A DNA stretch of 46,872 nt, counting the filler, from Jimgerdemannia flammicorona (lineage: Eukaryota): the NCBI GenBank assembly GCA_003990765.1. It is 2 parts of 2 records of this genome, joined end to end, with 100 filler letters (N's around TTAATTAATTAA, not from the genome) between each part and the next. Parts side by side here need not be neighbours in the genome. Positions count along the whole stretch, not along the records: positions 1 to 23,395 come from RBNJ01001112.1; positions 23,496 to 46,872 come from RBNJ01001113.1. One strand, 5' to 3'. The notes below the pieces were generated by a model that was given only the letters and a program-made list of their open reading frames with translations, ran no database searches and was not told where the DNA came from. Position numbers and translations under genes: made by a program. Of the stretch, positions 2,781-45,938 are shown in pieces. Every line of letters starts with the position of its first letter. Position 1 is the first letter of the stretch.

Positions 2781-2873
2781 CTTGTCTGGGTATTGGGGCT
2801 CGGTTTGTATGGTTGTTCGGGTGGTGGCGGTTGTTCATTGTTCAGCTTGAAAGTGAGGAATTCGTCTTGAATC

Positions 2874-2891
2874 ACCAGTCAATGGGCACCA
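2874..2891 (-). promoter_or_regulatory. Primer-binding site of family A (TGGTGCCCATTGACTGGT); cognate tRNA not assigned
   Basis: Starts 3 nt after the LTR terminal CA; near-identical to the PBS at 38750. Confidence 0.8.
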
Positions 2892-2894
2892 AGT

Positions 2895-19969: not shown

Positions 19970-20134
19970 TAGTACTCTTAATGAATTTAATCAAAGATCT
20001 AATTCAATTCAATTCAAATCAAATCCAAGGCTAATTTGATTCAAAATTCAATTTGAATCTTATTATTCAAAATATAATAACTCAATAAAAGTACATCCAT
20101 ATTTAACAATCTTTAGCTTATTAAATTCCTCTAT
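19970..20134. mobile_element. One arm of a fold-back MITE (same family as 27717-28041), cut at its centre by an LTR insertion
   Basis: Matches the reverse complement of the right arm of 27717-28041, from TAGTACTC to TTCCTCTAT. Confidence 0.7.
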
Positions 20135-20580
20135 TGTAACATAGCAAATGCTAAGATGGGCAAGTACATCAGATTTCTTTATCTTGAATTCTTGTCTTCT
20201 TGACTCCCAGAGTCAGTAGTTCCTTGAGGTCAAATGTGTTTTTAAAGAGGTAATCTCAAAGGTCCTTTTATCAGTATACTTGTTCTTTTTCTAACACTTT
20301 CGATCTGAGGTTTATTCACTTGAAGATATTGGGTTATTTATACAAGTTTGCTAGCTAAGAGATGGCTACTGAGTTACGCGGCTAAGTTATGAGTCATTTA
20401 GACAATGTCTAGAAATTTAGACAATGTCGAAATGCTATACTAAATTGGGATGTTTGATTTGGAAATTTAGACAATATCGAAATTGGCAACTGCTAACTAT
20501 AAACTATACTACTTTGGGAATGGGTGCAATCAAGTGTCTATTCCCTATTTCCTTCTTCTTAATTCAGCTATACTGTTACA
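20135..20580 (-). repeat. 3' LTR (446 bp), related to 2895-3362
   Basis: TGTAAC...GTTACA termini; shared blocks such as TTCGATCTGAGGTTTATTCACTTGAAGATA and CTTTGGGAATGGGTGCAATCAAGTGTCTATTCCC. Confidence 0.88.
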
Positions 20581-21079
20581 ACTTCCTCCTGAATAGATAG
20601 TCTCATCTCTGAGGCATCTATTCAAACTCCCATGCTTCGACTGTCTGTATGGTTTTGTACTGTTCAATTTGTTGCATGACTGTCTCCCAATGATGTCTCC
20701 TTATTTTATCGTAGTCGGTAAGGGTTACTCCTTGCAGATGGGCTAATGCTGATTCATCTTCTCAAAATAGCTTATGGATCCTTTTGGTGATAGTGATCTG
20801 TGAGTAGGAGAGTTGGCACTCTGCGATCCAGTCTTCCTTGGTCTTTGCTGAGTCCTGGTTGAGCACCCATCCAAGCTTGAAGTACTCTTGGAACTCTGCC
20901 TGATGTTGGTAAGCACTAAAATGTGAGATCTGAGAGAGATGAGTCTGCACAATACTCTGAATATCCTCATAGTATGCCTCTATGGTCGGAGGCTCGGTGG
21001 TGTGCCATTGTCTTTCAATAGCCCTTTGTGCAGCACTAGTGATCTTGAGTACTGCTGCAGGGCTCTGGTTGTTGGCCAT
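20576..21079 (-). pseudogene. Accessory ORF (unknown family) downstream of integrase, ~167 aa with 3 in-frame stops
   Basis: ORF 20762-21079 reads on through a TGA: EYFKLGWVL...ITKRIHKLF*EDESALAHLQGVTLTDYDKI; it aligns by eye with the ORFs at 21743, 35702 and 37531. Confidence 0.65.
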
Positions 21080-21453
21080 GATACTTCTTGAGTCAGTTTC
21101 GGTGAATGGTGGTGAGGATTATTGTATCTGAGGGCTTTCATAGTCAGAAAGTAGTCCCTTTTATATCTTACACCAGGCAAGGTCCTTCCCATTTAGGCTC
21201 CAGTTTTTGCGACCAAGAGGCTTCTACCATATTCCAATATACCAGGACTTCATCTCCTATCTTGATAATCTCCAGAAGCTTGTGGGTTTTTTCTGCATTG
21301 CTCCATTATAGTGCCTGTGCCTTGATTATGTAATCTTCTGCCTTTTTTCTAATTTGATGCAATCTCTATATCTCCATATCCATATGCTTTCAGATTGCAT
21401 CATTACCTGCTGACAAACTTCCACCAGAACCTTCTTCACTGAATAGCATTTCT

Positions 21454-23228
21454 TGTAAGCGTACAACCTCCAAGCCACCGAAATTATACGTCACCCTCTG
21501 AACAAGCCACTGAAATCACATGTGACCTCCGAACAAATCTGGAAATCACCTGCTTGATCACAAAGCTGAGTCAAACCGAAGTCACAGCGCACAAAGCTGA
21601 GTCAATACGAAGTCACAGAACACAAGATCTACACAAACGGAACCTTACCAATCAGGACCAAATGCATATATACTGAGCACCGAGACGCGTCAAGTCAGAG
21701 AACCAAAACAAACAACAAACCACAACTTCCAAACATACAAACATGACCACTGAGATCTACAACCGCATCCGCGCTGACATTTGGAATGCCATTGTCAACC
21801 ATGCCACACCCCCTCTGCCCCTTATGAATATCCATAGCCTGGCACCCCTCTACTTTGTGGAAGCCTGATGGAACGCCCTGAACATGCTTAGCGAGGCTCA
21901 CCGAATCGGACAAATCTCAAGCTACTACCAGATCGGCCACCTCCTGGAAGACATGGTCGAACACCACCATGATACAGACATTACCCAGATGTCTCAACAC
22001 CAGAAGCTCATCGCCCGCAAACATCGAGAACTCTTCTATGAGTATAAAACCTTTATTCCACGCCTCCGAGTCACTACCAGCGAAATGGTTGCTACCCTGT
22101 CCTACGGCCAAATCGATGACATGATACAAGAAATCAACCACAAGTACCTCAAGTATGTCAAAACCATAGACAGAACCTTCCCGCACCCCGATGACCATAT
22201 CCTGCAAATGCCTCAAGTCGGATACGCCATGAAGGATGTCTACGATATAATCCACTTCGATGAAGACGAAGCAGAAGACAATGATCCCTCTGACACCGAC
22301 ATGACCTCTAGCCAAGGATCTCTGCCAACTCTGATCACTCTGCCAACCTTGCCGATGAACTTACAACAGTTCATAACCACATACGAGACTTATTGGGATA
22401 ATGACCACTGGCACGAATACCAACCCGCGTTCACCCCTGACTACTTCAACTACAATGAAGAGACCGGAGAACACAACCTGTACCTTCAGACAACCCTCGA
22501 GATTGAACCAACCACTCCACCACCCGAGTACGAGCGACTTGAATCACAGCCGCCAGCTTACTATAACCCCGTGACTCATAGTGCTGTAACCTATAGAAGG
22601 TACGCAGATAGCGAATCCGATGAAAGCGAAGACAGTACACCCATCCTTCGCCCAGCAATACCTTATCCAGCATACGAAACAGATGATGCTATCCTATGGG
22701 ATGGAGATGAAGTCCCAATGTATTACTACCTCAGCCAACAAGGAGAAGTAATCCACAAACTACTATTCCTAGACGACCACTTCATCAGAGATGATGCAAT
22801 TGATAGTGATGTCATTGAGGACTACCCAGACAGTGCCTAAACCTATAAATAGCCTAGCAGTCATAGTATAGTTAGATTAGCCCTGTATGACGTGACTGTG
22901 AACTGACTCAGCAGTCAGACGATCTCTTGACATGTCAGATCACACTTGTACTACATGACTGCATTCTGACTCAGCAAGGCACTTAGTGCTATATCCATAT
23001 CTAGCATAGTCCAGATAGCCCTCACTAGTATAAATACCCCCTCCCCCAGACCTCAGAATCTCAAACTCGAACACACAAGAACATTCCTGAATACTTCCCC
23101 CACAATATCCCTTCACACAACTACTCCTAGTATAGCAATATCATGAATAGCGAATAAACCTATTTCATAACCCACAAACCACTCTTAAGTAAATCCGCTC
23201 CCTGTTAGGTCCTACTCCTAACCCTGTC
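21454..23228 (+). mobile_element. Probable long, gene-containing LTR of a further family ('D') inserted into the family A integrase; right boundary uncertain
   Basis: Begins with TGTAAG exactly where integrase homology stops; repeated CAAAGCTGAGTCA; TATA boxes at ~22844 and ~23028 and AATAAA at ~23153; no partner LTR or TSD visible before the gap. Confidence 0.5.
21743..22840 (+). pseudogene. Accessory ORF (unknown family) with long acidic/Pro-rich tail, 365 codons with one in-frame TGA (21866)
   Basis: ATG 21743 is in frame with ORF 21884-22840; core YYQIGHLL...IARKHRELF...IPRLRVTT...LS. Confidence 0.7.
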
Positions 23229-23395
23229 ACGAAATTTCCTAATTGGGTATTGTCTGCAGCGATATGCCAATTCAACTAAGCTGGTCTTAGTTTCTTGAAC
23301 TTCCTGAAATACGGAAAATCCTGAACATCCAGAACTAGTCCGGAAAAGGACCTTGGTTGAGACGTCAACCCAATCTTGAAATCAATAAGCGTAGA

Positions 23396-23495
23396 NNNNN
23401 NNNNNNNNNNNNNNNNNNNNNNNNNNNNNNNNNNNNNNNTTAATTAATTAANNNNNNNNNNNNNNNNNNNNNNNNNNNNNNNNNNNNNNNNNNNN
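23396..23495. other. Assembly gap / artificial linker (44 N + TTAATTAATTAA + 44 N)
   Basis: All-frame stop linker centred in exactly 100 bp. Confidence 0.97.
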
Positions 23496-26340: not shown

Positions 26341-26479
26341 TTGCTAAAACTTGACTGTTTTCCTCGAAACTTATTGTGTCTTGTAGGTAGACTCCCACCA
26401 CATGATGTACACCAGTATGTTCAAAATAAAAACTTGAAAACATGTTGTCTTTCGCTGAAAGATACTTGTGTGGCTTAGC

Positions 26480-28097: not shown

Positions 28098-28179
28098 TGT
28101 AACAGTGACCCCAGAATGATGACATCAGCACAGGAGACAGCCTTTCCTTACAAGCCACCAGATCGGAGCACAAGAAGAT

Positions 28180-29001
28180 TGTAATAGAATGAAAGAGCAT
28201 GAACAGATGGGATGCGACAAATGATGAATGATTACGTGACCCGGCAATGACGTCATCATACGAATGAAGCGCAACATACGAATTATGAATGACGAATAAT
28301 GCGAACGATGCGAAACAATGCGGAAAATGATATCCAGCTTATCCCCAACAATCGGCGCCACAGCAATAGTTGCCACAGCAGCTGATCATTACCTAGTAAT
28401 TGAGGTCCTGATCACAAAGTTGTTTTTACCAAAAACCACCTGACAAAGATTGCGATCACAAACCTCATTATAGTTACCAAATTAGTCACTCATACTTAGT
28501 TAGAAATCATGGACCAACTTGTATAAATACCCTCCAGTTTCCATCTGAAATAAAGCAGTTTTAGTTCAGTCCTTGATATAAGAATCAAGTTTCCCCCACA
28601 CATATACATTCCCCTATGTCTTAGTAATGACATCTAAGTGACTCTAGTGTTTCTGACTAAACTCTAGAAGCCTAGCTAACTTCTGCCAGAACTGAGACCA
28701 GTATATAAATCTCCAAAGACTTAAGTAAACCCATTGAACCTGAATTTCAAGGCGAATTCAGTCTGTGCACAGCAAAGAACAAGACCCTCAAAATAGGGCA
28801 CAAGAGAAAGACCTTTGAAACAGAAGGCAAACCAGAAAAAGACCTTTGAAAGATAAGGCACTGCCACTACAACTACTTTAAGTAAGTGCTTCCTCAAACT
28901 GAAGGCTTCTTGGTATACATTGTGTACTAAGTCCCTAAGTAATAGTCCACTTCCCTAATTATCCTAAAGATAAGAGAGGAGTAGAAGTGAGAGTTATTAT
29001 A
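28180..29001 (+). repeat. 5' LTR of element C
   Basis: Direct repeat of 36544-37365; terminal CA mutated to TA. Confidence 0.93.
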
Positions 29002-29004
29002 ACT

Positions 29005-29015
29005 TGGTAGCAGCG
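29005..29015 (+). promoter_or_regulatory. PBS of element C (TGGTAGCAGCG), compatible with initiator tRNA-Met
   Basis: Starts 3 nt after the LTR; complementary to a ...CUGCUACCA iMet-type 3' end. Confidence 0.7.
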
Positions 29016-29891
29016 ATTTACCAGCCAAGAAGGCACCAAAGAACATACTCCTGAAGTTGGAACAAGACCAACCTTGAACAGAAGTAACCCTCAGAATCAA
29101 CTGTGGATCCCCAAACTAGAGCCAGAGAAGCCCTTGCCATTAGGACCAGGTGGTACCAGAAAACCACAGACACAGAGACCTACCAGCTTGTAATTGACCA
29201 GGCTTACAAGGATCTATACTAGACCTTTAGGATATACCACCCAGGACTTAGGAATATTGTTAGCCACTGTAGGTTCTACGAACTCCTCCGAGAATACATT
29301 GGAACCACTAGGACCCCAGAATCTACTGCTGCAGCCACTTAGGATTTTTTAGATTATATTACACCCCCTGCTGCAAGAGAAGCAGCTGCCAAGTGGATTG
29401 CCTCTGACAGGTATCATCATACCCCAACCAAGACCTCTCTCTACTACAGGCTAGTTGTATACTATGCCTCTGCTATAACTAGGTACAAGAACAAGCAAGC
29501 AGGCCATCCATCCCCTACTGCTGAACAAGGAGCAGGCCCATCAACCCAGCCAGAGACCGATATCCTCTTTGAAGGACCTAGTCAGTATGAGGATGCACTA
29601 TCTCATCAGAGAAGGGAGTCAGACGTAGACTCTACAGGTTACCAGTCTGACGATAGCCAACGAGGAACAGCAGGCCTAAGAATTTACCAAGGAACTACAG
29701 ATCAAGAAGATCAGACCCCAGAACCAACTCAGCCACCTATACAGAGGTTTGGTTTACCCTCTCTCACAGGAATCTTTGACTTAATATCTGGAAACCAAGT
29801 AACTCCAAGTCATACAGCACTACAACCCCACCAAGCAGAACAATCTTCAGAAGAATCTACCCCAACAGGCCCACCACCAATAGTCAACACA

Positions 29892-32800
29892 ATGGTAGAT
29901 GTCAACATTGCAGCACTGATCACCCAGCTAGCAGCACTAGCAGGAATAGTAGGACAGATTGCTGAACAGAACAAACCAATCAAGACCTTGCGAATTCCAA
30001 CATTCAGTGGAAAAAACAGTGACATTGAAAACTTCATCAATGCAGTTGACACAGGCTACCAAGCAAACCAATAGAATGACAACTGAGTACCTATAGGAAT
30101 GCTCACTAATAACCAGAACAGCACCCTTCAACAGCTGCTTGCCACATCAGCAGCACAAGTAGAAACAGTAGCTACATTCTTTACTAGAACAGTAGCTGAA
30201 TTCTGGCAAACCTTGGAACAACACCCAGTAATCTGGGAAGCCTGCCCTCAAGTCAATGGACAAGTACCTGGCAACAATAGACCAGGTTGGGATGACTATG
30301 AAGCAGGCCCAGGACTCAAGGCCTTACTACTGACCAAATTCCAAAATGCAGCCTACATACAAGAAACATGGAACAAACTGTCCTAGATGAAGTTCCACAA
30401 GAATGGCGAAGAGGATCTAGAGACCTTTGCCACCAGAATGGATGCCTATCTCAAAACCATTAGACTTACCTATCAGGAGAACAATTTGGCCATCAATGGT
30501 ACCAGAGCCAATCATCTCTTTGCAGCCCTACCAGACTGGCTCACCCAGAAGATCAAGGAACAAGATCTTCCCCAAGGATATCCTCACTACTCATAGTACT
30601 TTGCCCAAGTACAAAGAAGAGCCCACGAAATCCTTGCTGCACAAGCTCCATGAAATCAAGAATACAAGAAGGATAACCAAGATAGAAGAAATCCTACCAG
30701 GAGAAATGATCAAAGAAATGACCAAAGATATGATCAAAGATATGATCAAAGGAACCAGCGAAACCCCAGAGGACCCAGACCTCCCACTGAGGATGAGAAG
30801 AAGCAGCTCCGTGAAAAAGGATTGTGCTTCATCTGCAAAAAGGTAGGACACATCTCAGTCAAATGTCCCAAGAAGAGAAATAGAGCAAGTGAACCTAGTA
30901 ACCAGAACATTACTGTCATTAGAGAAGGTCCAGAAAAGAAGAACCCTGAGAATGTCATCAAAGTACAGAAGATATGGTACAAGGCTACCATCCCCACTAA
31001 GGCCCACTCAACTGATGCTGGATATGACCTCTACAGCAGCCAAGATCTCACCATCCCACCAAGTACCAATGCTACAGTGCGAACAGGAATTGCAATACAA
31101 GCCCCCAGAGGTACATACATCCACTTTGCTGAGTGAAGCAGCCTAGCCAAAGAGTTCAACATTGGGCTAGGAGGAGGAGTAGTTGACCAAGGTTTTACTG
31201 GTGAAATCCATGTCATCTTGCGAAATTTTGGAGATACCTCATTTGAAGTCAAAACAGGCCAAAGAATTGTCCAAGCAATCATTGAAGAAATCTGTCAAGA
31301 TCTCACCATTGAAGAAGTTCCCAAACTCTCCCAGATAGATCGTGGCAAGAAAGGGTTTAGATCTACCAACAAATCTCCCAGTCAAAAGGTCACTACCATG
31401 AAGGAAGATGATGAAAACTGGTACAAGAGAATTGCAGATGATTATGCACCATGTGGATGATGCCCTCATTCTATTCGAATGTACTGCATGGAACATGTTG
31501 GTGAATGCTATGCATGCCTCTCCAAAGTTTTCAAAATTCAATCTGAGAAGCACCAAGCTCAACAGACTGAGGAATCCAAACAAGACAACCCTCCTTATGA
31601 AGGATGGAGAGAAACTGACTTCGAGGAGACTGACAGCAATTGGGACAACAATGAGGATGAAGAGCTCAATACCATCAAGAAGGAGGATAGTTGCATCAAG
31701 TTCACAGGCCAAGTCCACAGACAAAATGTCAATGTCTTACTTGATAGTGGTGCTACTGGAAACTACATCAGTACCAAGACTGCCAAGAGGATTGGAGCCC
31801 AAAGCAGACCCACTGCTGAGAAAAGAAGTGTTACCTTTGGTGATGGAAAGACTGCACCATTGACTAAGATCTGTGAAGACCTTTTGCTTAAGATTGGTAA
31901 ATATCAAGAGAAGTTGGACTTACAAGACATTATCTTAGGAAAAGCCTGGTTGACCTAGCACAACCCAGACATCAACTAGAGAACCAATGAGGTTAACCTG
32001 ACCCACGAAGATAGAAAGATCACCCTGACACCCCAGGAAGGTACCAACCACTAAGAAATCGAAATCATTTCTGCCATTCAAATGAAGAGACTCTCTTGAA
32101 AAAAGGGAAACACCTACTTCATCTGTACAGTACAAGAAGTCACTGAAGCCACAAGTAGCCCAATTCTAACAGAAGCACAAGAACTGTTCGAAGAATTCCA
32201 GGATGTATTCCAAGACCCTCAAAGACTTCCACCCAAATGCCAAATCTAACACAGAATTGATCTTATCTCAGGATCTGAACCCCCATACAAGAGTATCTAC
32301 CAACTGGCCCAATATGAGCTCAAGACCCTCAAGGATGAGTTGACCAAACTACTGGCCCAAGGATACATTGAACCCAGCCACTCTCCATTTGGAGCCCCCA
32401 TTCTATTTGTCAAGAAGAAGGATGGCTCTCTGCGAATGTGTATTGACTACAGAGCCCTCAACAAGATCACCATCAAGAACTGATATGCCTTGCCCAGGAT
32501 TGATGAGTTACTATACCAAATCTTCAAGGCTAAGACCTTTTCTCTACTAGATTTGCAAAATAGCTACCACCAGATTCTCATTGATGAGAAGAACATTGAG
32601 AAGACAGCTTTCCAAATACAGTTTGGACACTACCAGTTCTGAGTCATGCCTTTTGGATTGACCAATACACCAGCAACATTCCAGTATCTGATGAATGACA
32701 TCTTTGGACCACTCCTCAACATCTGTATCCTTGTGTATATTAATGATATACTAATCTACAGCAAGATAGTAGAGCTACACTATACCCACCTTAGACAAGT

Positions 32801-35063
32801 ACTGACCCTTCTGTGAGAACACCAGCTCTATGCCAAGATGAGCAAGTGTAAGTTCTACCAAGACCAGATTGAGTACTTAGGATACATCATCTCTGCTGAA
32901 GGTATCAATGTAGACCCCCAAAAGGTATCAGCTCTCAAGGATATCCCTATCCCTACTACTCTCAAGCTACTCCAGTACTTTCTGGATATTGCCAGTTATT
33001 ACTGAAGGTTTATCCAAGGATACTCTGCTATTGCAGCCCCATTGACCAGTCTGGCCTATAAAGGAGTGAACATCAAAGCTGAATAGACTCCCGAATGCAC
33101 CCTAGCTATAGACCATCTCAAGAGACTCCTTACTGAGGCCCCAGTACTAATTGCACCTGACTCTACCAGACCATTCACTCTGACCACAGATGCCTCTGAC
33201 ATTACTATTGGAGCAGTGCTCAGCCAAGAAGACTGCCCAGTGGCCTAACTTTCCCAAAAACTCAAGCCAGCTGAGACCCAGTATACTACCCATGAGAAGG
33301 AACTCCTGGCTATTGTCACTGCACTCCAGGAATAGCACCATTTCCTCCTAGGACAGCCATTTGTAGCCTACACTGATTACTATGCACTGTGGTATATTTA
33401 CACACAGCCTATGCTAACCCACAGACAAGCCTGCTGGATGGAAATCATTGCCAACTTTGATATGGAAATCAAGTATATCCCAGGCAAAACCAACCATGTG
33501 ACTGATGGTTTCTCCAGATATATGGAAGATAAACTTGTCTTCATAGTTGAAGTAATTGGAGACCTTACCCAAATGATCAAGGATGGCTACCAGCAAGATA
33601 GCCCCCTGATGAATTTCCTTCAATTCTGCCAAGACCCAGAGGCCAAGATTCCAGAACCCATGAGGCAAATGGCCAAGAGATTCACCTACCGTGATGGACT
33701 TATCTATAGGGACCATGACAGAGTAGTTGTACCCAACAATAATACTCTGTGACTCAAGATCATGCAGGAACTCCATGATACTCCTGTGGCAGAACACTTT
33801 GGTTTTGAAAAGACCTACAACCTCCTCTCAAGAGAGTTCTACTGACCAAAGATGACCAAGGATATCAAAGACTTTGTGGCCTCATGTGAGATGTACAAAA
33901 GGTTCAAAAGTGGTAACAAGCTATCAGCAGGACTCCTGCAACCCTTGCCTATCCCGAGTCACAATTGGGACCAGATTGTGATGGACTTCATTATCCAACT
34001 CCCCAAGACCAAGGCAGGATGGGATGCCATCATAGTATTCGTGGACTGCCTAAGTAAACAAGCCCATTTTGCACCCACTAAGACCACTGCTACAGTACCA
34101 GAGATTGCCGAGATCTTTCTCAACCAAGTATTCAGGCTATATGGCATGCCTAGCACCATTGTATCTGACCGAGATGTCAAGTTCACAAGCAATTTCTGGA
34201 AGGCATTTTTCTCTCTCCATGGAACCAAGCTGAAGTTCTCTACTGCCTACCACCCTCAGACTGACAGTCAAACCGAGCAAACAAACAGGACTCTCAAACA
34301 GATACTTAGCATCTTCTGCTGTTACAAGCAAAATGATTGGGACAAGTACCTAGCCCATGCTGAGTTTGCCTACAACAACAGTCAGCAAACCTCCACAAAG
34401 AAGACTCCATTCTTCCTGAACCATGGTCAATACCCAAGGACCCCAAGTACTACCACGAAATCAGCAGTCCCAGCAGCCCAAGATCTGGCCAAGACCATTT
34501 CTGACCTTATGCGAATGACAAGAGATGCTCTCATAAAAGCACAAGACTACCAGACCAAGTACGTGAATTTGAAGCAAAGAGAAGCCTCCTACAATATTGG
34601 TGACAAGGTCATGCTTATAACAGACCACCTCCACCCAGACACCCTGGCACAACAACCAGCCAAGAAACTCCATGCTAGAAGAATTGGACCATACAAGATC
34701 ATGGAAAAAATCAGCGAAGTCAACTACAAGTTGCAACTTCCCTACAATATCTGAGTACACCTGGTATTCCATATCAGCCAATTGGCAGACTACCATGAGA
34801 ACTCATTCCCCAAGCATACAGTTCCACCACCACCCTTAGTTAGGATCAATGATTACGAGGAATTCGAAATTGAGGAAGTACTTGACCACAAGGTCCGCAA
34901 ATATCCCAAAACAGTCAAGCACTTTTTCCTGATCAAGTGGAAGGGTTACCCCACCCATGATGCTATCTGGGAAAAAGAAGAAGCTCTAAAGAATGCACGT
35001 GAAGCCCTCCAGGACTACATGGAAACACTCACCCCCCAGCAAAGAAAGGAACTACAGCTCTAA
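29892..35063 (+). pseudogene. Element C polyprotein: gag(CCHC)-dUTPase-Cys/His module-protease-RT-RNase H-integrase-chromodomain (true start may lie further 5')
   Basis: All listed ORF pieces are in one frame. Motifs: CFICKKVGHISVKC, DAGYDL/GVVDQGFTGEI, LLDSGATG, MPFGL..YIND, TDAS, MDFI..SDRD..YHPQTD, GPY, EEFEIEEVLD..IKWKGY..IWE. Confidence 0.92.
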
Positions 35064-35701
35064 GTATAGGAGCACACAGCGAGCAGAAGGATACCACATA
35101 TTTTTAACTGGAAACATATAATACCGAACACTGTGAAAAAAGGAACACTATGGATAACCAAGATATCTGAACAAAAGAACAATCTAGTACAGTACAGCAA
35201 AATGTATTTGAACAACTCTACTTCATGCCATCTGTGTCATCTCTGCTGGATGATGACGGATGCTTCATGTGAAACTTAAGAAAGCCGACAATGTCGAAAC
35301 CAGTCTAAGTCCATCCACGTGACAGATATTGTTACTAGGAATTGCCTTGGATTACAAGAAAAGTCTATTTCTGAGAGGTTCGAACCCCCAGCCATGACAA
35401 TGGGAGCCCTTGCCCTAGACAAGGATGGCCAGTCCTTGCAAATACACCAACCAGACAAAAAAAAAGTGGACCAAGACCTGTTAACTCTGTGTAACCACAA
35501 CTACAGGTGATGAGATCTTTGAAATCAAGATTTTCTCATGTGACTAGCATATGCTCCACTTACAGCACAGATCATGCATTTTGTCAGAAAGCATGACCAA
35601 AGGAAGGTCACATCAGATGGGTGAATAAGTATAAATACCCAAGACAAGAATACCCTGCAACTCTCATCCCCCTTTCCTTACAAAGAAAAGACAAGACAAG
35701 A

Positions 35702-36532
35702 ATGCCTGCCACCTGCCACCAAACTGCCCACCATAGCCAGCCTCTCTCAAGCCAGGTTGACTACCTCTTTGGACACATCCAGGTTGCCATCCAAGGAAGG
35801 AACCGCTGCTCAGAGGCCCTTAACCTCTCCAGCCCAGACCTAAGACAGTATGTCCTTGACCACCATGAAATTATTGAAAGGGCCTACCTTGCTACCAGCC
35901 ACCTAGAGATCTGGCATGAATATGAGATTGGCCATCAACTTCTCTAATGGGCAAAGGACCTCCCCATGGACCAAGTCTCTGATTGGACCCACCTAGACAG
36001 GCATGAGCAAAGACTTGCCAAGAAGGTCCATCAAATCATGTGCCATATACCCTTCACGATCCCCAACCTCAACTATATATAACTGAAGGACTTCCAGAAC
36101 CTCTCTTTCCCTGAGGTCGATGCCCTAGAAGTCAAGGTCACCCAAGAAGCCAACTTCTGGATTGCCCTCAAGTCTACTGACTGTGAACCCTACTGGAGCC
36201 CCCTCCTGAATGACAACTCTGACCAATGGCTCCAAGGTCTCTCTGACCTCTTTGAAGGACCACCTATTCGAATGGATATTCCCAGACATGAAGATCAAGA
36301 GCCCTACTTGGATGGCCCCAACTGCATCAGATGGAGAACCCCTACACCAGCACCTATTCCAATGCAAGAACTATTTGCAGACCTCATTGACTTCTCCATC
36401 CTGGACAGCGAGCCCTCTGCAACCATCAACCCCCCTGCCCTTGAAGAAGATAGTAATGACCCTGAGGAGGATTCCCCACCTTTCTCTCCCCTGGTTCTCA
36501 ATTTCTCAATCAACAAGGACATTGATTTCTAA
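35702..36532 (+). pseudogene. Accessory ORF (unknown family) in the env position of element C, 276 aa with 2 in-frame TAA
   Basis: Own TATA box at ~35630; the frame joins ORFs 35621-35947 and 36272-36532; the stop overlaps the PPT; clearly homologous to 37531-38334. Confidence 0.8.
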
Positions 36533-36543
36533 GGGGGGAAGGA
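36531..36543 (+). promoter_or_regulatory. Polypurine tract of element C
   Basis: AAGGGGGGAAGGA immediately before the 3' LTR TGTAAT. Confidence 0.88.
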
Positions 36544-37365
36544 TGTAATAGAATGAAAGAGTGCAAACAGATAGGATGTAATGAACAATGAACGATCATG
36601 TGACCTGGCGATGATGTCATCATATGAACGAAGCACAACATACGAATTACGAATGATGAATGATGCGAATGATGCAAAACGACACGGAAAATGATATCCA
36701 GCTTATCTCCAACAATTGGCACTGCAGTAATAGTTGCCACAGCAGCTGATCATTGCCTAGTAATTGAGGTCCTGATCACAAAGTTGTTTTTACCAAAAAC
36801 CACCTGATAAAGGTCGTGATCACAAACCTCATTATAGTTACCAAATTAGTCACTCATACTTAGTCAGAAATCATGGACCAACTTGTATAAATACCCCCCA
36901 GTTTCCATCCAAAATAAAGCAGTTTTAGTTCAGTCTTTGATACAAGAATCAAGTCCCCCCCATACACACACATTCCTCTGAGTCTTAGTAATGACATCTA
37001 AGTAACTCTAGTGTTTCTGACTAAACTCCAGAAGCCTAGCTAACTTCTGCCAGAACTGAGACCGGTATATAAATCCCCAAAGACTTAAGTAAACCTATTG
37101 AACCTGAATTCCAAGACGAATTCAGTCTGTGCACAGCAAAGAACAAGACCCTCAAAATAGGGCACAAGAGAAAGACCTTTGAAACAGAAGGCAAACCAGA
37201 AAAAGAACTTTGAAAGATAAGGCACTGCTACTACAACTACTTTAAGCGAGCACTTTCTCAAACTGAAGGCTTCTTGGTACACATTGTGTACTAAGTCCCT
37301 AAGTAATAGTCCACTTCCCTAATTATCCTAAGAATAAGAGAGGGGTAGAAGTGAGAGTTATTACA
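36544..37365 (+). repeat. 3' LTR of element C
   Basis: TGTAAT...ATTACA, direct repeat of 28180-29001. Confidence 0.95.
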
Positions 37366-37530
37366 AAGATCATATGGTATATGAGATGAGCAATGATGAC
37401 CAACTGTGAGTCATTGTGACCACAGCACAAGCATCCTGAAGAATATAAAAAAAGGATCAAGGAACTGCAGTAGCAGCAACCAACAAGAACCACCAATCCT
37501 AAAATAGCTCAAAGACTTACCACAAATAAA

Positions 37531-38334
37531 ATGCCTGCTGCCTGCCAAACCTCAAGGTCAAGGAATCATTAAGATATCTCAGTCAAGGAAAGGATGTTCC
37601 AAGACATCAGAAGAGCCATGAGAACCTACTCAAGAAGGACTCTTAGTGTTAACCTGGGTACTGCAGACCCTTATCACTTTATCCTCTACCACCATGAAAT
37701 GGAAACAAGGATCACCATTACTACTAAATGCCTCCAAATATGGCAGGAGTATGAAATAAGAAACCTCCTCTGCTGGGAATTCCCACAGGCCAGCACCCAA
37801 GAGCTACAAGATGCCACTCCCATGGATATATATGAAACAAGGACAGCTAGGAAGATCCATCAGATCTTCAGGCATGCACTATGGTCAATCCCCAACTTGG
37901 AGTATGTTAGAGTCTCAGATTTCAGAGACCTATCATCCCACTGTATCAATGCACTAGAAGCCAGGGTGGCTACAGAAGTCCAGTCTACTATCACCCTCAA
38001 CAGTGAAGAAGTAGAAGACTTCTGGCACCCTATCCTTCAGGACAACCCAGATCAATTCCTGTAAGGATTGATCTCAGTATTCCAAGGCCTAAGTATCCAG
38101 GTTAGATCTCCCCAAGATCCCACATTTGTTCCTTATTTTGTAGAAGAGAACCTCATAGACTGGAGAGCTCCAGACCTTGTCCCCGATTTCTCCACCACAG
38201 CCAAACGTGATGACGTCATCAATGACGTTATCCAGCACAACATTGAAGCATGCAAAAATGACAAATTCGCAGATCTCATCTCCTTTAGTAATGATGATGA
38301 TGAAGCCCCCATAATCCTGAACTTTCTGCTCTAA
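37531..38334 (+). pseudogene. Accessory ORF inside the 5' LTR of element B (267 aa, 2 in-frame stops)
   Basis: ATG 37531 follows a TATA at ~37443; the stops at 37570 and 38062 are CAA in the other LTR copy. Confidence 0.8.
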
Positions 38335-38749
38335 GTTCTTTATAACACTGGATAATGCCAGCACTGACATTCTGAGGTAACATGAAATTATTCCAGTACT
38401 GGTATTTTGATGTGACACTAAATAATGCCAGCCCTGGAACTTAGTAGTTTTAGTTATTGGAATTTATATTTAGCTTTATATCTTGGTAACCATTGAATTA
38501 TATTTTGTATAAATATCTCTCTTATTTCCTCTGAAATAAAGTCAATTCTTCTTAGTGCAATACATACACTTCCTTGCAAGCAATCTAAGAGATAACAAGA
38601 CAGTTAAAGATAAGAAGTTTGAGGACTATAAGACCTTAGGAAGGTACTCCAATAAGAACTTGCTTATAACAACTTGAGTTAGTCTAAGAGATACACCTTG
38701 AAGAGAATCTGGTATATTTGAAGGACTCAGCAACTACTATGTGACAACT

Positions 38750-38767
38750 TGGTGCCCATTGGCTGGT
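38750..38767 (+). promoter_or_regulatory. PBS of element B (TGGTGCCCATTGGCTGGT)
   Basis: Starts 3 nt after the LTR end GTGACA; same type as the family A PBS. Confidence 0.8.
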
Positions 38768-38866
38768 GATTCAAGATGAATTCCTCACTTTCAAGCTGAA
38801 AAACGAACAACCCCACAACAACTACCCTGACTACAAGAGTCACCCCTGCAAGAATTCAAGACAAGA

Positions 38867-41800
38867 TGGAAATGCACCCCCCCACATTCTATGGATATAT
38901 GTACTACTGAAGAGTCAATCCTGACCTTTATTGAAGACTTTGAACAATTTGCCGCTATACGAGCCCTTGGTGTGGATGCTCAATTGGCCCTTCTATCAGT
39001 CAGCCTCAGAGGACCTGTCAGAAATAAGTTTAATGCAGCCATCATTGCTGGTGCAGATGCAGTCAAACTTGCCAACATAAAGACCTTCCTCAGAACAACA
39101 TATTATACTAAAGAGATCAAGCAAGCTCTCAAGGATCAACTCAATACTATCTGCCAGAGACTTAGTGAAGATCCCAACTCATTCTATACCCGAATCTATC
39201 ACCAGATTGTCTTGGCTGGCTATGATGATGCCCTCAAGGAACAAATAGTGGATTCAACCTTCCTCAAAGGAGTTCACCCTGAAATTGCCCTAGTAATTTG
39301 GTCTACCCCAGCTGTACTGACTCTTGATCAGAAAGTGGTCTTTGCACAGAGATATTGGACAGCCAGACACCCTACCAAACACTCAATGGAGAAAATAACT
39401 GGTATTAAGATAGAGCCATCAAAGTCAACTAGTATCTTACCTGCCACAGTTGTAAACAGACAACCAACCCCACCTATCCCCAAGACAGCCAAAGCTGACC
39501 CAGTGGAAGAACTTGCCAAGCAGTTTGCTGAGATGACTGCACACCTTGGTGATATTGTTAGAGAAGTCCGAAGCGCCAACAGGAGACCAGTATAGAGATT
39601 TGTAGCTGCTACAGAAGAATGTAATATCACATGCTTCAGATGTGGAGAAGAAGGCCACTATACAAAGAGTTACATGACTGAAACAAGACACAAAGCCCAA
39701 CCAAGCAATGCTAGCAGAACCAGAGAACAATCTAATGTAGTAGTCATTGAGGAGATCAGTGACACTGATGATGAAGAATACTATGAGGAGCTCGAATTCT
39801 ACCCTGCTACTGAAGGTACCAGAACCCGGTCCAAGCCCTATGACAAGAAGAGTAACAGCAAGTGAGTTGGAAGACCAAAGAAGACTCCAGCTGTTACTAT
39901 TCAAAGCAAGACCCAATATGAGGAGATTGATCAAGACATGGAGTTAGATGAAGCTGCCCACCAAATTATTGAAGGCACTACTCCAGTCTCAGGAGAAAGT
40001 GAGAGTAAGAAGGAATAGAAGCTGTGCAAGACCAAGATCCACCAGTATGACATCTACATATAAGGACCTCAAGGAACAGAAGGTCAATGCCACTTTTGGG
40101 CAACTAGCTGAAGTCCCTGCCTTCAGACAGCAGTTGAGAGTAGGACTTGCAACTACTATCAAGAATCAAGAGTACAAGATTGTAGAAGCTCACAATGCAC
40201 AAGAAGAATATGAGAACTCAGGTGAAGAATCCAAAGACCAGCACAAGACATCAGCCTATACCCCCTGTCAGATCAAAGACTGTATCTTTGATGCCATCAT
40301 TGATACTGGTGCCGAAGGATGTCTCATGAGCAAGAAGACAATTGACCGCCTAGGTTGGGACATTGAAGAGTCTACCAAGATGGTCTATGTCACAGCAGAT
40401 GGTATACAAGCTACCCCCCTTGGCAAAATCTGAGAAGTCTCCATCAAGATAGGAGGAGCTACCATCCCAGTAGATGTAATTGTTACAAGTGCCACCAACT
40501 ATGACATCCTCATTGGTAACCAATGGCTTCATAAGGCCAAGGCTATCATTGACCTCAATGCTCAGAAGATGCAGATCAACTACAGAGGAAGAAAGGTATG
40601 AGTTTCTATCAATGTCCACAAAAGAGACCTGCTAGACATGGAGGAAGGAGATGAAGAAGACACAGAGGTCTTCATGCACTCAGTGAACAAGAACAAGAAC
40701 AAGACACCCAAGCTCACAGATGAGCAGTGGTATAACAAGATCATTGATGGGTATGCCCCTCAAGGAAGATGCCCCCATAGTACTAGAATGTACTACTCCG
40801 AATACCTGAATGACTGCTGGTTCTGTATCAGCGAAGTAAGGAAAATCCACCAATGGAAATATGAGTAAGAAGCTGCCAAAGCAAAAAGGAAAGCTGAAGA
40901 AGATGACCAGCCCCCAGAGCTTCAAGCTGACAGTGATGATGAGGAGGAACAAGAATCAGACATCACCCTCAAGGTCAAGAAGTTTCACCCTAAAGCCAAG
41001 ATCCCAGAATACAAGACTGAAGGAGCCATAGAAATGGACCTTGTCAGCATCCAAGACACTACTCTCAAACCACAGACCACCACCCTACTTGGCACTGGAA
41101 TTGGAGTCAAGTTGCCAGAAAACTATGCCAGAATTATCAAGACCAGGAGCAGCCTGGCCAAAAGTGAAATCTCAGTTGAAGGAGACATAATTGACCCTGA
41201 TTACACCAGTGAGATTTTTCTCATAGTCAGAAATCACAACCACACCACTCTCTTTGAAGTCAAGAAGCATGACAGGATTGGCCAGATACTGATCCACAAA
41301 ATCAAGAAGCCCAAGATCATAGAGGCCACTGAACTTATCAAGACTAAGAGAGGAGAACAAGGCTTTGGATCTACTGGAAGAGGAGTCTATGCTGCCACCA
41401 AGATTACTGAACTTGAGCACAAGAAAGACAAGAACCAGAATAAGCACACATATACCATTGGAGAAAACTTTCCCCTGGAGAAACAACTTCTCAAGATCCT
41501 GTACCAGAATGAAGAAGTACTTGCTACAGACTTTAGGGATATCCATAATCAAGAACCCAAGTATCACCATGAAGTTGACACTGGTGACACCAAGCCTATC
41601 TACCAGAAAGCCAGACCCATACCACCTGCCTACAGAGAATGGCTGCGAGCTGAACTCAAGGAAATGGAAGAAGCTGGAATCATTAAGCAAGCTATCAGCC
41701 CCTGGGCCTCACCCATTGTTCTTGCCCCAAAGAAAGGAAGCAAGCCTGGAGAGTTTGCACCAAGACTCTGCATTGACTACAGGAAACTCAATGCCATCAC

Positions 41801-42899
41801 CAAGAAGGATAGGCAGCCCTTGTCAAATATTCAAGAAATCCTTACCACCCTTAGAAGCAAAGCCAAATACTACACCACCTTGGATCTGTTCTCAGGCTTT
41901 CATCAGATTGGTCTCACTCAAGATGCCAGTGAGAAATCAGCCTTCATCATATCTAATGCCACCTATATCTATCTGCGAATACCATTTGGAATGTGTAATG
42001 CCCCAGCAAGTTTCCAGTGAATGATGAACAGAGTCTTCAGCAATGAGATTGGAAAATGGCTCTTTGTCTATGTTGATGATGTGATCATCTTCAGCAACAC
42101 TACACAGGAATATGTCAATCACATACAGCTAGCCCTCAAGAGGCTCAAGGAGCATGGCCTCTACATCAAGCCCAAGAAATGCAAGTTTGCAGCTCAAGAA
42201 ATTGTCTACCTAGGACACCTCATCAACCAGACTGGAATCCACACAGACCCCATGAAGATCGAGGCTGTTGCAGCCTACCCAAGACCCAGAACAACCACAG
42301 AAGTCTATGCCTTCCTTGGACTAGCCAGCTACTACAGAAGATTCATCAAAGGATACTCCAACATTGCAGCACCTATCTATGAGCTACTGAAGAAGGAGAC
42401 CAAATTCGAATGGACCAAGGAGCACCAAGAAACCTTCAATGAACTCAAGACCAGGTTGACCCAAGCACCCATTCTCAGAAGACCAGACTGGAGCCTAGAA
42501 TTCATTCTGCAGACAGATGCGAGTGCTATAAGACTTGGAGCGGTCCTAGTTCAGAAGAAAGATGGACATGAATATGTCATCTCCTATGCAAGCCGAGGTA
42601 TCCGTGGAGCAGAACAGAACTACGAGTCATGCAAGCTTAATTGCTTAGCAGTAGTTTGGGCAGTAGACAAGTTCCACTACTATCTAGCCGGAAAACACTT
42701 CACCATTCAAACAGACCATTCCGCTCTTGCCTGGCTATTCCACACTCTGAACCCCAAAGGAATATATGCCAGATAGATCTACAGGCTGCAAGAATATGAC
42801 TGTACTGTCAAGCACTACCCAGGAAAGACCAACACCAATGCTGATGCACTCTCAAGGACACTCTGAAACATCTCCATCAAGACTATTCAACATGAATAA
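38867..42899 (+). pseudogene. Element B gag-protease-Cys/His module-dUTPase-RT-RNase H
   Basis: CFRCGEEGHY, IIDTGA, RSSLA/IIDPDYTSEI/RGEQGFGSTG, PWASPIV, RLCIDYRKLN, LDLFSGFHQI, YVDD, QTDAS, TDHSAL, ADALSR; stops and a frameshift near 40050. Confidence 0.92.
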
Positions 42900-44120
42900 G
42901 GAGCTATACTATGGATTAATCAGCTATCTTGGGCAGTGGAAGATGCCCAACCATCTCAAACCCTGGACAATCACCATCATCAACCGGACTTGGAAACAGT
43001 TTGAATTAGACAACACTACACTCAGAAAAGGAGGAAAGCTAGTAATACCTGAACACAAGAAGTATCAAGTAATGAAGGAAGTATATAAGCAAGGACACTT
43101 AGGAGGAACCAACACATACAATAAGGCAAGAAGAACCATATGGTGGCCCAAGATGGAAGAAGACCTGTGCCAATTTGTCAAAGGGTGTGACAAGTGCTAA
43201 AAACAGAAACAAGATCAGCAAGACCAGGCACCTGGATCATCAAGAATTGAGCCTATCCCCTTCCACTACATCACGATAGATATTATTGGACCACTATCAG
43301 TAACACTATCAGGAAACTGCTATATTATAGTTATTGTAGACCTCTTCACTAAATGGATAGAGGCAGGAGTATTACAAGAAGCCAATGCTCTCTCTATAGC
43401 TGATTTCCTACACTGAGAAATCATCTGCCACTACAAGACACCAAAGCAAATCACAACAGACCATGGCACAGAATTTGTCAATGGATTCCATGAGATAATA
43501 TACCAGAAATACAAGGTCCAGCACATCAAGACTACCGCATACCACCCTCAAGGAAATGGACAGACAGAGAGAACCAACAAGACTCTCAAGAACATCCTAG
43601 CAAAGATCTCAGAGACATACGAGAATTGCGATAACTATCTCCCAACTGCCCTCTCTGTTCTACGAGACATATGGTCACAGAGCACACATTTTACCCTAAG
43701 AGAGCTGCTCTTTGGAGAAGAAGATTCTAATGGAACCTCAGCCACAAATCTAGACCTAACTTGGAGATGGGTTGATGAAGAAATCTGGAGACTACACCAA
43801 ATCAGGAAGAAGGCTGAAGATTACATCACCAAGTCACAAGCACTGATAAGGAAGAATGCAGAAAAGAATCACAAGGCCCTAGAACCCATCCAAATTGGAG
43901 AAAAGGTTCTACTGTATCAAAATATAGTAGAAGCCTCATGGTTACAAAAACTGGAGCCCAAATGGGAAGGACCCTTCTATGTATATACAAGATATCAAGG
44001 GAACTACCTTCTGGCTTAGAAAAATCTCAGGGACCATACTGCCTACCATGGTATATAGGAACAGACTCAAGAAGTACCATGAACCTATACAAGAGAAGCA
44101 AAACATGATAACCGCCTGTG
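42892..44120 (+). pseudogene. Element B integrase (HHCC-like zinc finger, DDE core, GPF/Y), no chromodomain
   Basis: GHLG..WWPKM..CDKC, IDIIGPL, VDLFTKW, ITTDHGTEF, YHPQGNGQTER, KLEPKWEGPF. Confidence 0.88.
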
Positions 44121-44445
44121 AGGTTCTAGTCCACGAATCATAACAGCATGTCCTGTGACCAGCAGGCTATCTGTCTGGACTATTCTCTAAGAGATACGGT
44201 ACTGACAACTACTCATCCATGAGACTTTTGCAGTCAGAGGAGTTCGAACCATCAACTGATTGGTCAAGATCAGAATCAGGCCCTTGCTCTATATGAAGGA
44301 AGTGACCCTTCACCATTATGCCAAAATACAAAGAGGAGATGCCAGCCCATAAATACTCCTTGCCAGAGGTTATGGGATCAGCAAATTTTTCAGAACTGGA
44401 CCAATGAATAAGGATGCTCAGGAAGATCCTTATTCAGGAGAAAGA

Positions 44446-45938
44446 TGTAATGGTGACCCCAGAATGATAACATCAGCACAGGAGACAGCCTTTCCTTACA
44501 AGCCACCAGATCGGAGCACAAGAAGATCATATGGCATATGAGATGAGCAATGATAACCAACTGTGAGTCATTGTGACCACAGCATAAGTATCCTGAAGAA
44601 TATAAAAGAAGAATCAAGGAACTGCAGTAGCAGCAACCAACAAGAACCACCAATCCCAAAATAGCTCAAAGACTTACCACAAACAAAATACCTGCTGCCT
44701 GCCAAACCTCAAGATCAAGGAATTACCAAGGTATCTCGGTTGAGGAAAGGATGTTCCAAGACATCAGAAGAGCCATAAGGACCTGCTCAAGAAGGACTCC
44801 TAGTGTCAACCTGGGTACTGCAGACCTTTATCACTTTATCCTCTACCACTGCAAAATGGAAACAAGGATCACCATTACTACCAAATGCCTCCAAATGTGA
44901 CAGGAGTATGAAATAGGAAACCTCCTCTGCTGGGAATTCCCACAGACCAGCACCCAAGAGCTACAAGATGTCACTCCCATGGATATATGTGAAACAAGGA
45001 CAGCTAGGAAGATCCATCAGATCTTCAGGCATGCACTATGGTCAATCTCTAACTTGGAGTATGTTAGAGTCTCAGATTTCAGAGACCTATCATCCTGCCA
45101 TATCAATGTACTAGAAGCCAGAGTGGCTACAGAAGCCCAGTCCACTATCACCCTCAACAGTGAAGAAGTAGAAGACTTCTGGCACCCTATCCTTCAGGAT
45201 AATCCAGATCAATTCCTGCAAGGATTGATCTCAGTATTCTAAGGCCCAAGCATCTGGGTTAGATCTCCCCAAGATCCCACATTTGTTCCTTATTTTGTAG
45301 AAGAGAACCTCATAGACTAGAGAGCTCCAGACCTTGTCCCCGATTTCCCTGCCATAGCCAAACATGATGATGTCATCGATGATGTTATCCCATGTGATAT
45401 CGAAGTATGTGAAAATGACAAATTCGTGTATCTCATCTCCTTCAGTGATGATGATGATGAAGCTCTCATAATCCCGAACTTTCTGCTCTAAGTTCTTTAT
45501 AACACTGGATAATACCAGCACTGGTATTCTTATGTAACACTGGATAATGCCAGCACTAACATTCTGAGGTGATGCAAAATTATTCCAGTACCGGTATTTT
45601 GATGTAATACTAAATAATGCCAGCCCTGGAACTTAGTAGTTTTAGTTATTGGAATTTATATTTAGCTTTATATCTTAGCAACCATTAAATTATATTTTGT
45701 ATAAATACCTCTCTTATTTCCTCTGAAATAAAGTCAGTTCTTCTTAGTGCAATATACACACTTCCTTGTAAGTAATCTAAGAGATAACAAGACAGTTAAA
45801 GATAAGAAGTTTGAGGACTATAAGACCTTGGAAAGGCACTCCAATAAGAACTTGCTTATAACAACTTGAGTTAGTCTAAAAGATACACCTTGAAGAGAAT
45901 CTGGCATATTTGAAGAACTCGGCGACCACTACGTGACA
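44446..45938 (+). repeat. 3' LTR of element B (1493 bp; carries a 35-bp local duplication near 45500-45570)
   Basis: TGTAAT...GTGACA, preceded by PPT AGGAGAAAGA. Confidence 0.93.
44688..45491 (+). pseudogene. Second copy of the LTR-borne accessory ORF (ATG>ATA, 3 stops)
   Basis: 804 nt, collinear with 37531-38334. Confidence 0.8.

Follow-up and report, generated by a model that had tools for sequence, protein, structure and literature searches.

Do the retrotransposons crowded on two contigs of the Jimgerdemannia flammicorona genome share, besides gag and pol, an accessory gene that has gone undescribed? The question arose from an earlier note on a stretch of 46,872 nucleotides of this genome (hereafter the window; two contigs, RBNJ01001112.1 and RBNJ01001113.1, joined end to end), which claimed that four lineages of long terminal repeat (LTR) retrotransposons, called A to D here, carry related open reading frames (ORFs) forming a single uncharacterised family, that this cassette had been exchanged between lineages, and that it encodes a trans-acting factor. 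Self-blastn, Pfam searches on read-through frames, tblastn queries taken from the B and C pol frames, and inspection of the junctions showed the window to hold a nest of Ty3-type LTR retrotransposons. The explanation that accounts best for the whole, to which we give a probability of roughly 55%, is that this hypermutated nest carries one undescribed family of helical accessory proteins, present in A, B and C and probably in D, which would act in trans and would have been exchanged between lineages.

Two of the elements concerned can be read from end to end. Element C (28180..37361, plus strand) is a chromodomain element of the Ty3 type and is complete: its LTRs lie at 28180-29001 and 36544-37361, and a target-site duplication, AAGAT, flanks it at 28175-28179 and 37362-37366. 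Its coding order is gag, dUTPase, protease, reverse transcriptase (RT), RNase H, integrase, SH3, chromodomain and finally ORF-C (35702..36532, plus strand), a frame of 276 codons with 2 premature stops located between the chromo-integrase and the 3′ LTR. The ORF-C stop codon (36530-36532) abuts the polypurine tract (36533-36543), and the LTR starts at 36544. Element C sits within the 5′ LTR of element B, of which the first 82 bp (28098..28179, plus strand, 96% identical to 44446-44527) are thereby separated from the remainder (37367..38746, plus strand, 90% identical to 44523-45938), itself followed by the primer-binding-site-like TTGGTGCCC. The internal region of B (38747..44445, plus strand) encodes gag, protease, dUTPase, RT, RNase H and integrase, without a chromodomain, and the 365 nt past the integrase (44081-44445) are non-coding. 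The 3′ LTR of B (44446..45938, plus strand, 1493 bp) is preceded by the polypurine tract AGGAGAAAGA, begins with TGTAATGG, and has its genomic promoter TATA at 45700 and AATAAA at 45727. Both B LTRs contain ORF-B: the 5′ copy (B5; 37531..38334, plus strand) has 267 codons and 2 premature stops, and the 3′ copy (B3; 44688..45491, plus strand, LTR positions 243-1046) has 3 premature stops and a mutated start codon. ORF-B belongs to the U3 part of the LTR, since a set of 35-bp repeats, the TATA at 45700 and the AATAAA at 45727 all come after it. These tandem repeats, found between the ORF-B stop and the LTR TATA (45500-45627 and 38343-38435), number one copy more in the 3′ LTR than in the 5′ LTR, and may be enhancer-like. 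We also observed that TATA and AATAAA are spaced by exactly 27 nt in both the B and C LTRs (36886/36913, 38508/38535 and 45700/45727), LTRs that have no detectable sequence similarity.

Element A, on the minus strand, is present in the window only as the end of its integrase (the last 380 nt), ORF-A and the 3′ LTR, its integrase being interrupted by a D-family LTR. The integrase remnant (21078..21458, minus strand), truncated around 21454-21460 by the D LTR, is 62% identical to the B integrase over 96 aa (tblastn), and 72% identical at the nucleotide level (21077-21374 versus 44081-43780, blastn). ORF-A (20618..21079, minus strand, 153 codons, 1 premature stop) comes directly 3′ of this integrase, which is that of a B-related element of the non-chromodomain Ty3 type, and ends about 45 nt short of the 3′ LTR (20134..20580, minus strand, about 450 bp). 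This LTR is 70% alike to that of E, a second A-type element of the window (3362-2894), and 79% to the 5′ LTR of L001, a metagenome element presented below; in a six-frame search of the window, it gave no match to the profile of the B/C family.

Element D is seen through an LTR (21454..23395, plus strand) that begins with TGTAAG, carries TATAAATA at 22844 and 23029 and AATAAA at 23153, and runs up to the joint between the two contigs (23396-23495), where the internal part and pol of D are lost from view. Three soil-metagenome runs and one other run, all public, supplied contigs that were aligned to 20500-23395. In all 4 runs, read depth rose 10-20 fold from 21470 on, relative to the neighbouring A sequence, and in 3 of the 4, purine tracts ending in AAGAAGGGGAGAG or AAGAAGGAGAGAG directly preceded 21454 in other D copies. 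Because of this step in depth and these purine tracts, 21454 is taken as the start of an LTR following a polypurine tract, and D as an abundant family of LTR elements. Thousands of contig pieces at 80-99% likeness to the D-type LTR were present in the four runs, a sign of a very abundant and diverse family. A possible LTR end at 23146, given by one contig of one run that joins 23146 back to 21454, was discarded as too weak (depth 2, side 31). ORF-D (21743..22840, plus strand) starts 289 nt into the LTR, within U3; it has 365 codons with 1 premature stop, of which 318 are open from an ATG at 21884, and encodes a helical N-domain followed by a long acidic tail rich in Tyr and Pro. All five frames thus lie where they had been placed in the earlier note. 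Its count of four lineages needs qualifying: A and B are sisters by their pol genes and the pol of D is outside the window, while the LTR nature of D is backed by the run data.

Are these ORFs copies of one gene? For B and C the answer is straightforward. BLASTP aligned ORF-B and ORF-C at 33% identity over 273 residues (E 1e-45), and the local alignment scores, 369 and 330, compare with means of 34-35 in two sets of 300 shuffles (z 67 and 56), despite the absence of any nucleotide similarity detectable by self-blastn. The motifs MPA.C, W.P.L.DN.DQ.LQGL, DLI.FS and P..LNF, noticed by eye at the start, were found in both. As far as protein sequences can tell, B and C are homologous beyond doubt.

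Relatives were then sought in 1.8 to 5.8 billion proteins, and 15 were found over all searches (14 proteins and one metagenome locus). An exhaustive search of 1.84 billion representative proteins with a B/C profile (made of B5, B3, C and P0001) brought up 7 proteins at E 0.001 or better, from which P0007, an ankyrin-repeat protein, was set aside as spurious. The intact relatives on the B/C side are P0001, which is 62% identical to ORF-C, P0003-P0006 and P0008; among them P0003 is B-like and matches the profile at E 4.8e-122. Eight A-type proteins (P0009-P0016) came from a word-seeded search, with a mixed alignment as query, of 5.8 billion proteins; among them is the intact P0009, which has the same length as ORF-A (153 aa) and 78% identity to it. 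Finally, a metagenome scan for A relatives gave 334 pattern matches, of which 1 was confirmed: L001, an element of 6.5 kb in which a 5′ LTR is followed by gag, protease, dUTPase, RT, RNase H and integrase, and in which an intact ORF-A overlaps the end of the integrase frame by 44 nt.

With these sets in hand, the A family aligned to the B/C family in a profile-profile comparison (hhalign) at P 6.4e-5 over 111 columns. A second link goes through P0006, a secure B/C relative (E 5.1e-16 in 1.84 billion proteins) that matches the A family at P 2.6e-5 and has the AHLQGVT motif in common with it. On such profile evidence, A very likely belongs to the B/C family. For ORF-D, the match to the B/C profile had a P of 0.0014 over 126 columns, in register; P was 0.002 with the combined profile and 0.03 with the A family. 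Over all six frames of the whole window, the B/C profile gave positive scores, apart from B5, B3 and C, to D (8.8 bits) and A (5.1 bits) alone, both matches covering profile positions 6/9-149. As controls, none of 30 shuffled sets exceeded -0.5 bits, and the best score of reversed frames was 4.2 bits, obtained on reversed ORF-B itself. Judging from these scores, D probably belongs to the family as well. Its one database relative, P0002, is 64% identical to the C-terminal part of ORF-D and covers the tail only, not the N-domain. The idea of one family across A, B, C and D therefore stands for B and C, holds for A at the level of profiles, and is marginal for D. An A-like remnant that had been proposed after the B integrase (~44240-44340) was rejected for want of support: no A-family profile match was obtained there, only an E of 0.015 over 17 residues (44284-44328, in a search space of 400 nt), and the nucleotide likeness of this region to A-like sequence is confined to the polypurine tract and the LTR start (76% over 51-60 nt).

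With the 4 window ORFs, Pfam returned 0 families at E up to 10, and with the ORF-A frame of L001 none at E 0.001 or below; a sequence search of the PDB with the family profile gave 0 matches at E up to 10; and neither the B/C nor the A profile matched the gag regions of B, C or E in six-frame searches. The ESM Atlas offered no informative neighbours: the best score was 0.88 with P0004 and 0.95 with P0009, the neighbours of the latter being unnamed prokaryotic or phage clusters. The two queries returned the same neighbour clusters, which we record as a lead only. The literature searched, in which PMC3248453 and PMC7264820 were covered by word search, describes in the text so covered neither the family nor any LTR-internal ORF of fungal retrotransposons. 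The novelty claimed at the outset is upheld to this extent: the family is not described in Pfam, the PDB or the literature searched.

All these ORFs are interrupted, and the pattern of damage is clear. Over the B LTR pair (37367-38746 versus 44528-45938), the 108 aligned differences consist of 106 transitions and 2 transversions, and over the C LTR pair (28180-29001 versus 36544-37361), 69 of the 71 differences are transitions and 2 are transversions. The transitions are mostly in CpA and CpG contexts. Since the stops sit where intact relatives have Gln, Arg or Trp, and since the LTR pairs differ almost exclusively by transitions, the stops arose by C>T/G>A changes, as the earlier note had supposed in reading through them. 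This pattern resembles repeat-induced point mutation (RIP), or else deamination of methylated cytosine. Transition hypermutation, together with dUTPase-bearing Ty3 elements, is consistent with a fungal host.

Before this damage, was the gene under selection? Comparison of ORF-A of the window with that of L001 gave 78.2 non-synonymous differences over 364.8 sites (pN 0.21) and 79.8 synonymous differences over 91.2 sites (pS 0.88, saturated). With pN so far below pS, the result is at odds with neutrality, and means that ORF-A was under strong purifying selection before the window copy was hypermutated. The dN/dS of 0.43 between B5 and B3 was set aside, as these LTR copies diverged by hypermutation after insertion and not under selection. 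What is usually asked of an additional ORF is found here: B and C are complete elements with LTRs and target-site duplication, L001 has an intact ORF-A after gag-pol, intact relatives exist, and pN is lower than pS.

The gene always occupies the 3′ end of its element, in one of two ways. In A and C, it follows the integrase and precedes the polypurine tract, a position between pol and the 3′ LTR; the gene of B and D is instead inside the U3 of the LTR. Because of this U3 location, each LTR of B and D carries a copy of the gene. A TATA box stands 72-87 nt upstream of the start in 4 of the 5 ORF loci of the window: TATAAAT at 35630, 72 nt upstream of the ORF-C ATG, TATAAAA at 37444 (B5) and 44601 (B3), 87 nt upstream of the ORF-B start, and TATAAAA 86 nt upstream of the ATG in ORF-A, as also in L001. 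The background of TATAWAW is 1.2 per kb per strand in the window, and a rough binomial P of 4e-4 is obtained for 3 of 4 lineages having one in a slot of 40 nt. This arrangement suggests that the family gene has its own promoter and that, in B and D, its transcript would be contained in a single LTR.

All types have in common a domain of about 150 residues made up entirely of helices, in which the most conserved motif, W/F-x-E-Y-E/F-I/K ... A-K/R-K/R-I-H-x-I/L-F, falls on a long helix and the helices after it. For P0009, AlphaFold2 was given a 17-row alignment covering all types and returned an entirely helical model, with a mean predicted local distance difference test score (pLDDT) of 86.2 and a predicted template modelling score (pTM) of 0.77; helices span residues 2-23, 40-75, 81-88, 92-105, 109-114, 120-124 and 128-151. 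A homodimer model of P0009 reached an interface score (ipSAE) of 0.59 (0.60, 0.48 and 0.59 in individual runs), compared to 0.00 for the best control; at least 97% of contacts were common between runs, and partner pLDDT was at least 62. The model thereby passed its controls. As a calibration, among proteins of solved structure, 21 of 30 pairs but 0 of 23 single chains attained the mark set for dimer models (for eukaryotes, 17 of 29 and 0 of 30). The predicted interface involves the long helix 40-76 and residues 84-94; it contains the family-wide E65-Y66 motif and is the most conserved part of the family. The model supports dimer formation by P0009 without proving binding. A-type proteins consist of the helical domain alone, whereas the B, C and D types add a disordered, proline-rich acidic tail, which has a net charge of -16 to -40 in these and their relatives and includes the short hydrophobic motifs DLIxFS and PxxLNF. 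A helical core with an acidic tail had been read from the sequence at first sight, and the P0009 model and the tail charges agree with it. The reading that the protein is not an envelope is supported too: the highest 19-residue Kyte-Doolittle mean was 0.13-1.05 in 8 of 8 proteins, under the 1.6 threshold for a membrane segment, no signal-peptide predictor being applied.

Did the gene move between lineages? The pol genes give one grouping: RT-RNase H identity is 70% between B and L001, and 37% both between B and C and between C and L001, with B and C integrases at 28%. The ORFs give another one. ORF-B shares 41 of 107 aligned domain positions with ORF-C, versus 11-14 of 109 with the A-type ORF, and has no BLASTP match to ORF-A of L001. 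Between the B LTR and the LTRs of A, E or L001 there is no nucleotide similarity at E 0.01, which speaks neither for nor against a swap of LTRs. Because the pol of B is nearest to the A lineage while ORF-B resembles ORF-C, exchange of a module is indicated, and the incongruence between pol and ORF supports acquisition of the B/C-type module by recombination. The proposal of an exchange between lineages made in the earlier note is in this way supported for B and C. The dUTPase is placed before the protease in C and after it in B, and a segment of about 90 residues between the two is shared by both (30933-32021 and 40290-41384).

Several observations weigh against the explanation given at the beginning, or against parts of it. 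Every copy in the window is broken, and none is active here. Of 14 sequencing runs listed, with shares of 0.23 or less, none is recorded as RNA. The membership of D relies on a P near 1e-3 for a candidate picked by eye, and of 339 pattern matches in the metagenome scan, none was confirmed as a relative of the D N-terminal domain. The TATA boxes amount to no more than a pattern in the sequence: that of ORF-A is within the integrase coding sequence, and ORF-D has only a TATATAC, 76 nt upstream of its ATG. With few elements sampled, very unequal rates of evolution could also yield the pol/ORF incongruence. As to structure, the model of P0004, of the B/C type, is poor (8 sequences, mean pLDDT 42.5), with helices only in the N-terminal 150 residues, and the dimer score of P0009 comes from a model run without alignment, for which passes on eukaryotic proteins may be less reliable. 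With the P0009 model as query, Foldseek found nothing in the PDB at E 0.001 or better (best E 0.67, template modelling (TM) score 0.24), nor in the viral proteins of BFVD (best E 0.53), and in VIA wide none of 48,161 chains attained Z 5 (best 4.7). The helix-turn-helix leads seen in VIA wide, namely the TetR-family Mce3R (Z 4.7), SopB (Z 3.8, 89 aligned residues) and VirB (Z 3.6), all fall below the stated noise for helical models. A DNA-binding fold is thus unsupported, the fold searches being at noise level, and the net charge of the first 150 residues (+1 to -8) is atypical of nucleic-acid binders.

How do other explanations fare? The stops found in every window copy, and the listing of no RNA run, would fit ORFs that are not genes at all, but chance open frames in conserved LTR or untranslated sequence. 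We give this almost no credit: B and C keep their similarity at the protein level when none is detectable at the nucleotide level, relatives at 25-83% identity retain open frames, the pN of ORF-A is far below its pS, and the predicted fold is confident. A less extreme possibility is that only B, C and their database relatives form a family, the likeness of A and/or D being due to convergent short helical motifs, so that two or three unrelated genes would occupy one slot. Several numbers speak for it: pairwise, A and D are close to the shuffle range when compared to B/C (z 0.7-4.7); the A-family profile gives 0.0 bits on D and -1.0 bits on B3; hhalign assigns A a probability of 64%, and D 17% and 14%; and the candidates were selected by eye for the very motif in question. 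We nevertheless hold it to be rather improbable, as A has two independent profile links, one of them through P0006, the alignments are in register over 111-126 columns comprising the N-terminal helix and the core, A and D are the sole additional positives of the six-frame search, and D has its ORF in U3 as B does.

It could also be that no exchange occurred, and that the gene was inherited vertically from a common dUTPase-bearing Ty3 ancestor, with A evolving faster and losing the tail, and with the polypurine tract shifted upstream in B and D. The divergence of ORF-B and ORF-C is about that of the B and C pol genes, so this pair alone needs no transfer, and dUTPase is common to all these lineages. 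We consider this scenario unlikely too. The nearest pol relatives of B carry an A-type ORF, to which ORF-B is much less similar than to ORF-C, and B has a non-coding slot of 365 nt where the A lineage has ORF-A, in addition to an ORF in its LTR. ORF-A is not a fast-evolving gene, because it keeps 63-83% identity and a low pN within its own lineage. Moreover, the opposite positions of dUTPase with respect to protease in B and C imply that modules do rearrange. As for function, the protein may well serve a step other than transcription, be it export or packaging of genomic RNA, the countering of host silencing, or, as a structural component or adaptor, particle assembly or integration targeting, and we regard this as a sizeable possibility that falls short of even odds. 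It agrees with the lack of a DNA-binding fold in the searches, with a helical domain that is not basic, and with the A type, which has no acidic tail and whose shared function must therefore lie in the dimeric helical domain; precedents are a protein for nuclear export of genomic RNA (in the part of PMC10309623 consulted) and the varied functions of ORF3s (in the part of PMC5408684 consulted). Yet nothing here points specifically to any such role: there is neither a basic RNA-binding patch nor a membrane segment, and the family profile has no match on the gag regions of the window.

Returning to one exchanged family of trans-acting helical proteins, the following mode of action can be proposed. 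A TATA promoter belonging to the gene itself, 72-87 nt before the start codon, would drive its transcription, and the transcript would end at the poly(A) signal of the LTR, so that in B and D a single LTR would be a self-contained gene. The product would form homodimers through the conserved long helix and act in trans on the life cycle of the element; the helical domain would recognise a target and the acidic tail recruit host factors, making the protein a regulator of LTR-driven transcription. The module would have moved between distant pol lineages through recombination. A dimer-forming helical domain, acidic tails and a TATA box of its own are compatible with a trans-acting regulator, and a role in LTR-driven transcription, by analogy with the transactivators of foamy viruses, is the one that we favour tentatively, while thinking it doubtful. 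A bolder version, which we judge unlikely as a whole, is that the LTRs of B and D, solo LTRs included, are complete genes (TATA, ORF of 267-365 codons, poly(A) signal) producing a dimeric factor that acts in trans for the whole family, for example by activating LTR promoters or countering silencing, and that the promoter and ORF together passed as a module between chromodomain and non-chromodomain Ty3 lineages. In that event the elements would possess a regulatory gene of retroviral style with a novel protein fold, and their solo LTRs, far from being inert scars, would code for protein.

Retroviruses offer parallels to this layout. Accessory genes located in or overlapping the U3 of the 3′ LTR are sag in mouse mammary tumour virus (MMTV), nef in primate lentiviruses, and tas/bet in foamy viruses, the latter with an internal promoter. 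MMTV Sag is a membrane glycoprotein, and foamy-virus Tas combines a target-recognition domain with an acidic activation tail. The gene of the window resembles sag, nef and tas in its position at the 3′ end or in U3, its duplication with the LTR, and the promoter that it appears to possess; the domain followed by an acidic tail recalls Tas in layout only. It departs from the retroviral accessory proteins in having no BFVD match and in belonging to elements without env, and from Sag in having no hydrophobic segment. The U3 placement and the TATA box would, in keeping with this parallel to sag, nef and tas, make single LTRs potential coding units.

Among retrotransposons, the nearest term of comparison is the additional ORFs (ORF3 or aORF), a known kind of gene of which few have a known function and very few are documented outside plants and animals. 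In bdelloid rotifers, as far as the consulted part of the report goes, ORF3 types are shared between unrelated lineages of LTR retrotransposons (Rodriguez, Kenefick and Arkhipova 2017, PMC5408684), and for fungal Gypsy elements, the part consulted of another report draws an "add. ORF with unknown function" and variable positions of dUTPase (Novikova et al. 2010, PMC2864245). The family described here is similar in being an extra gene at the 3′ end beside gag-pol, of the same type in distant pol lineages, with a dUTPase of variable position. It differs from the rotifer ORF3s, which are recognisable enzymes or env-like proteins, by the lack of any Pfam, PDB-sequence or fold match, and from the usual aORF by lying inside the LTR in two lineages: the searched text of a review on plant aORFs (PMC7264820) has 0 occurrences of "within/inside/in the LTR". 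CERV, a protein of the Caenorhabditis elegans LTR retrotransposon Cer1, is needed for nuclear export of the genomic RNA according to the portion of PMC10309623 consulted. Likened by description only, it is also a non-gag, non-pol protein of an LTR retrotransposon acting in trans on element RNA; its host is different, and its position and domain are, from the same portion, different or not comparable.

The abundance of the D family in soil-metagenome runs indicates that the protein may be a common unannotated component of the genomes of the host clade, and could bear on the annotation of such genomes and on the control of transposon expansions.

Outside these elements, the window contains further features. 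The joint at 23396-23495 is made of 44 N, TTAATTAATTAA and 44 N between the two contigs; it looks like an artificial linker with stops in all frames, and its flanks need not be genomic neighbours. Element E (1..3362, minus strand), which served as a comparator for pol and LTR and was delimited by self-blastn, tblastn and LTR comparison, comprises a gag-protease-dUTPase-RT part (1-2904, minus strand) and a 5′ LTR (2894-3362). The sequences beyond the A LTR (19619-20077) and beyond the E LTR (3364-3820) are 61% alike, as expected either if the same type of repeat hosts both copies or if a diverged second LTR adjoins each of them. Host genes are found between the two, namely a frame at 7208-12433 (plus strand) encoding in series haem peroxidase, DOMON, cytochrome b561, cytochrome b5 and FAD/NAD-binding reductase domains, and a major facilitator superfamily (MFS) transporter at 16367-17314 (minus strand).

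The second contig shows, at ~24000-26300 and ~26900-27700, a stretch of markedly negative GC skew whose long frames, rich in proline, occur on both strands and match nothing in Pfam and, next to it, a degraded RT-like sequence, read by eye in the frame translation, that may belong to a non-LTR element. Just past element B, the 3′ part of the C LTR has a counterpart in reversed orientation, a fragment of 72-74% identity at 46090-46546 (minus strand), which is followed at 46647-46796 by 14-bp tandem repeats of the ATCCGGATTGACC type.

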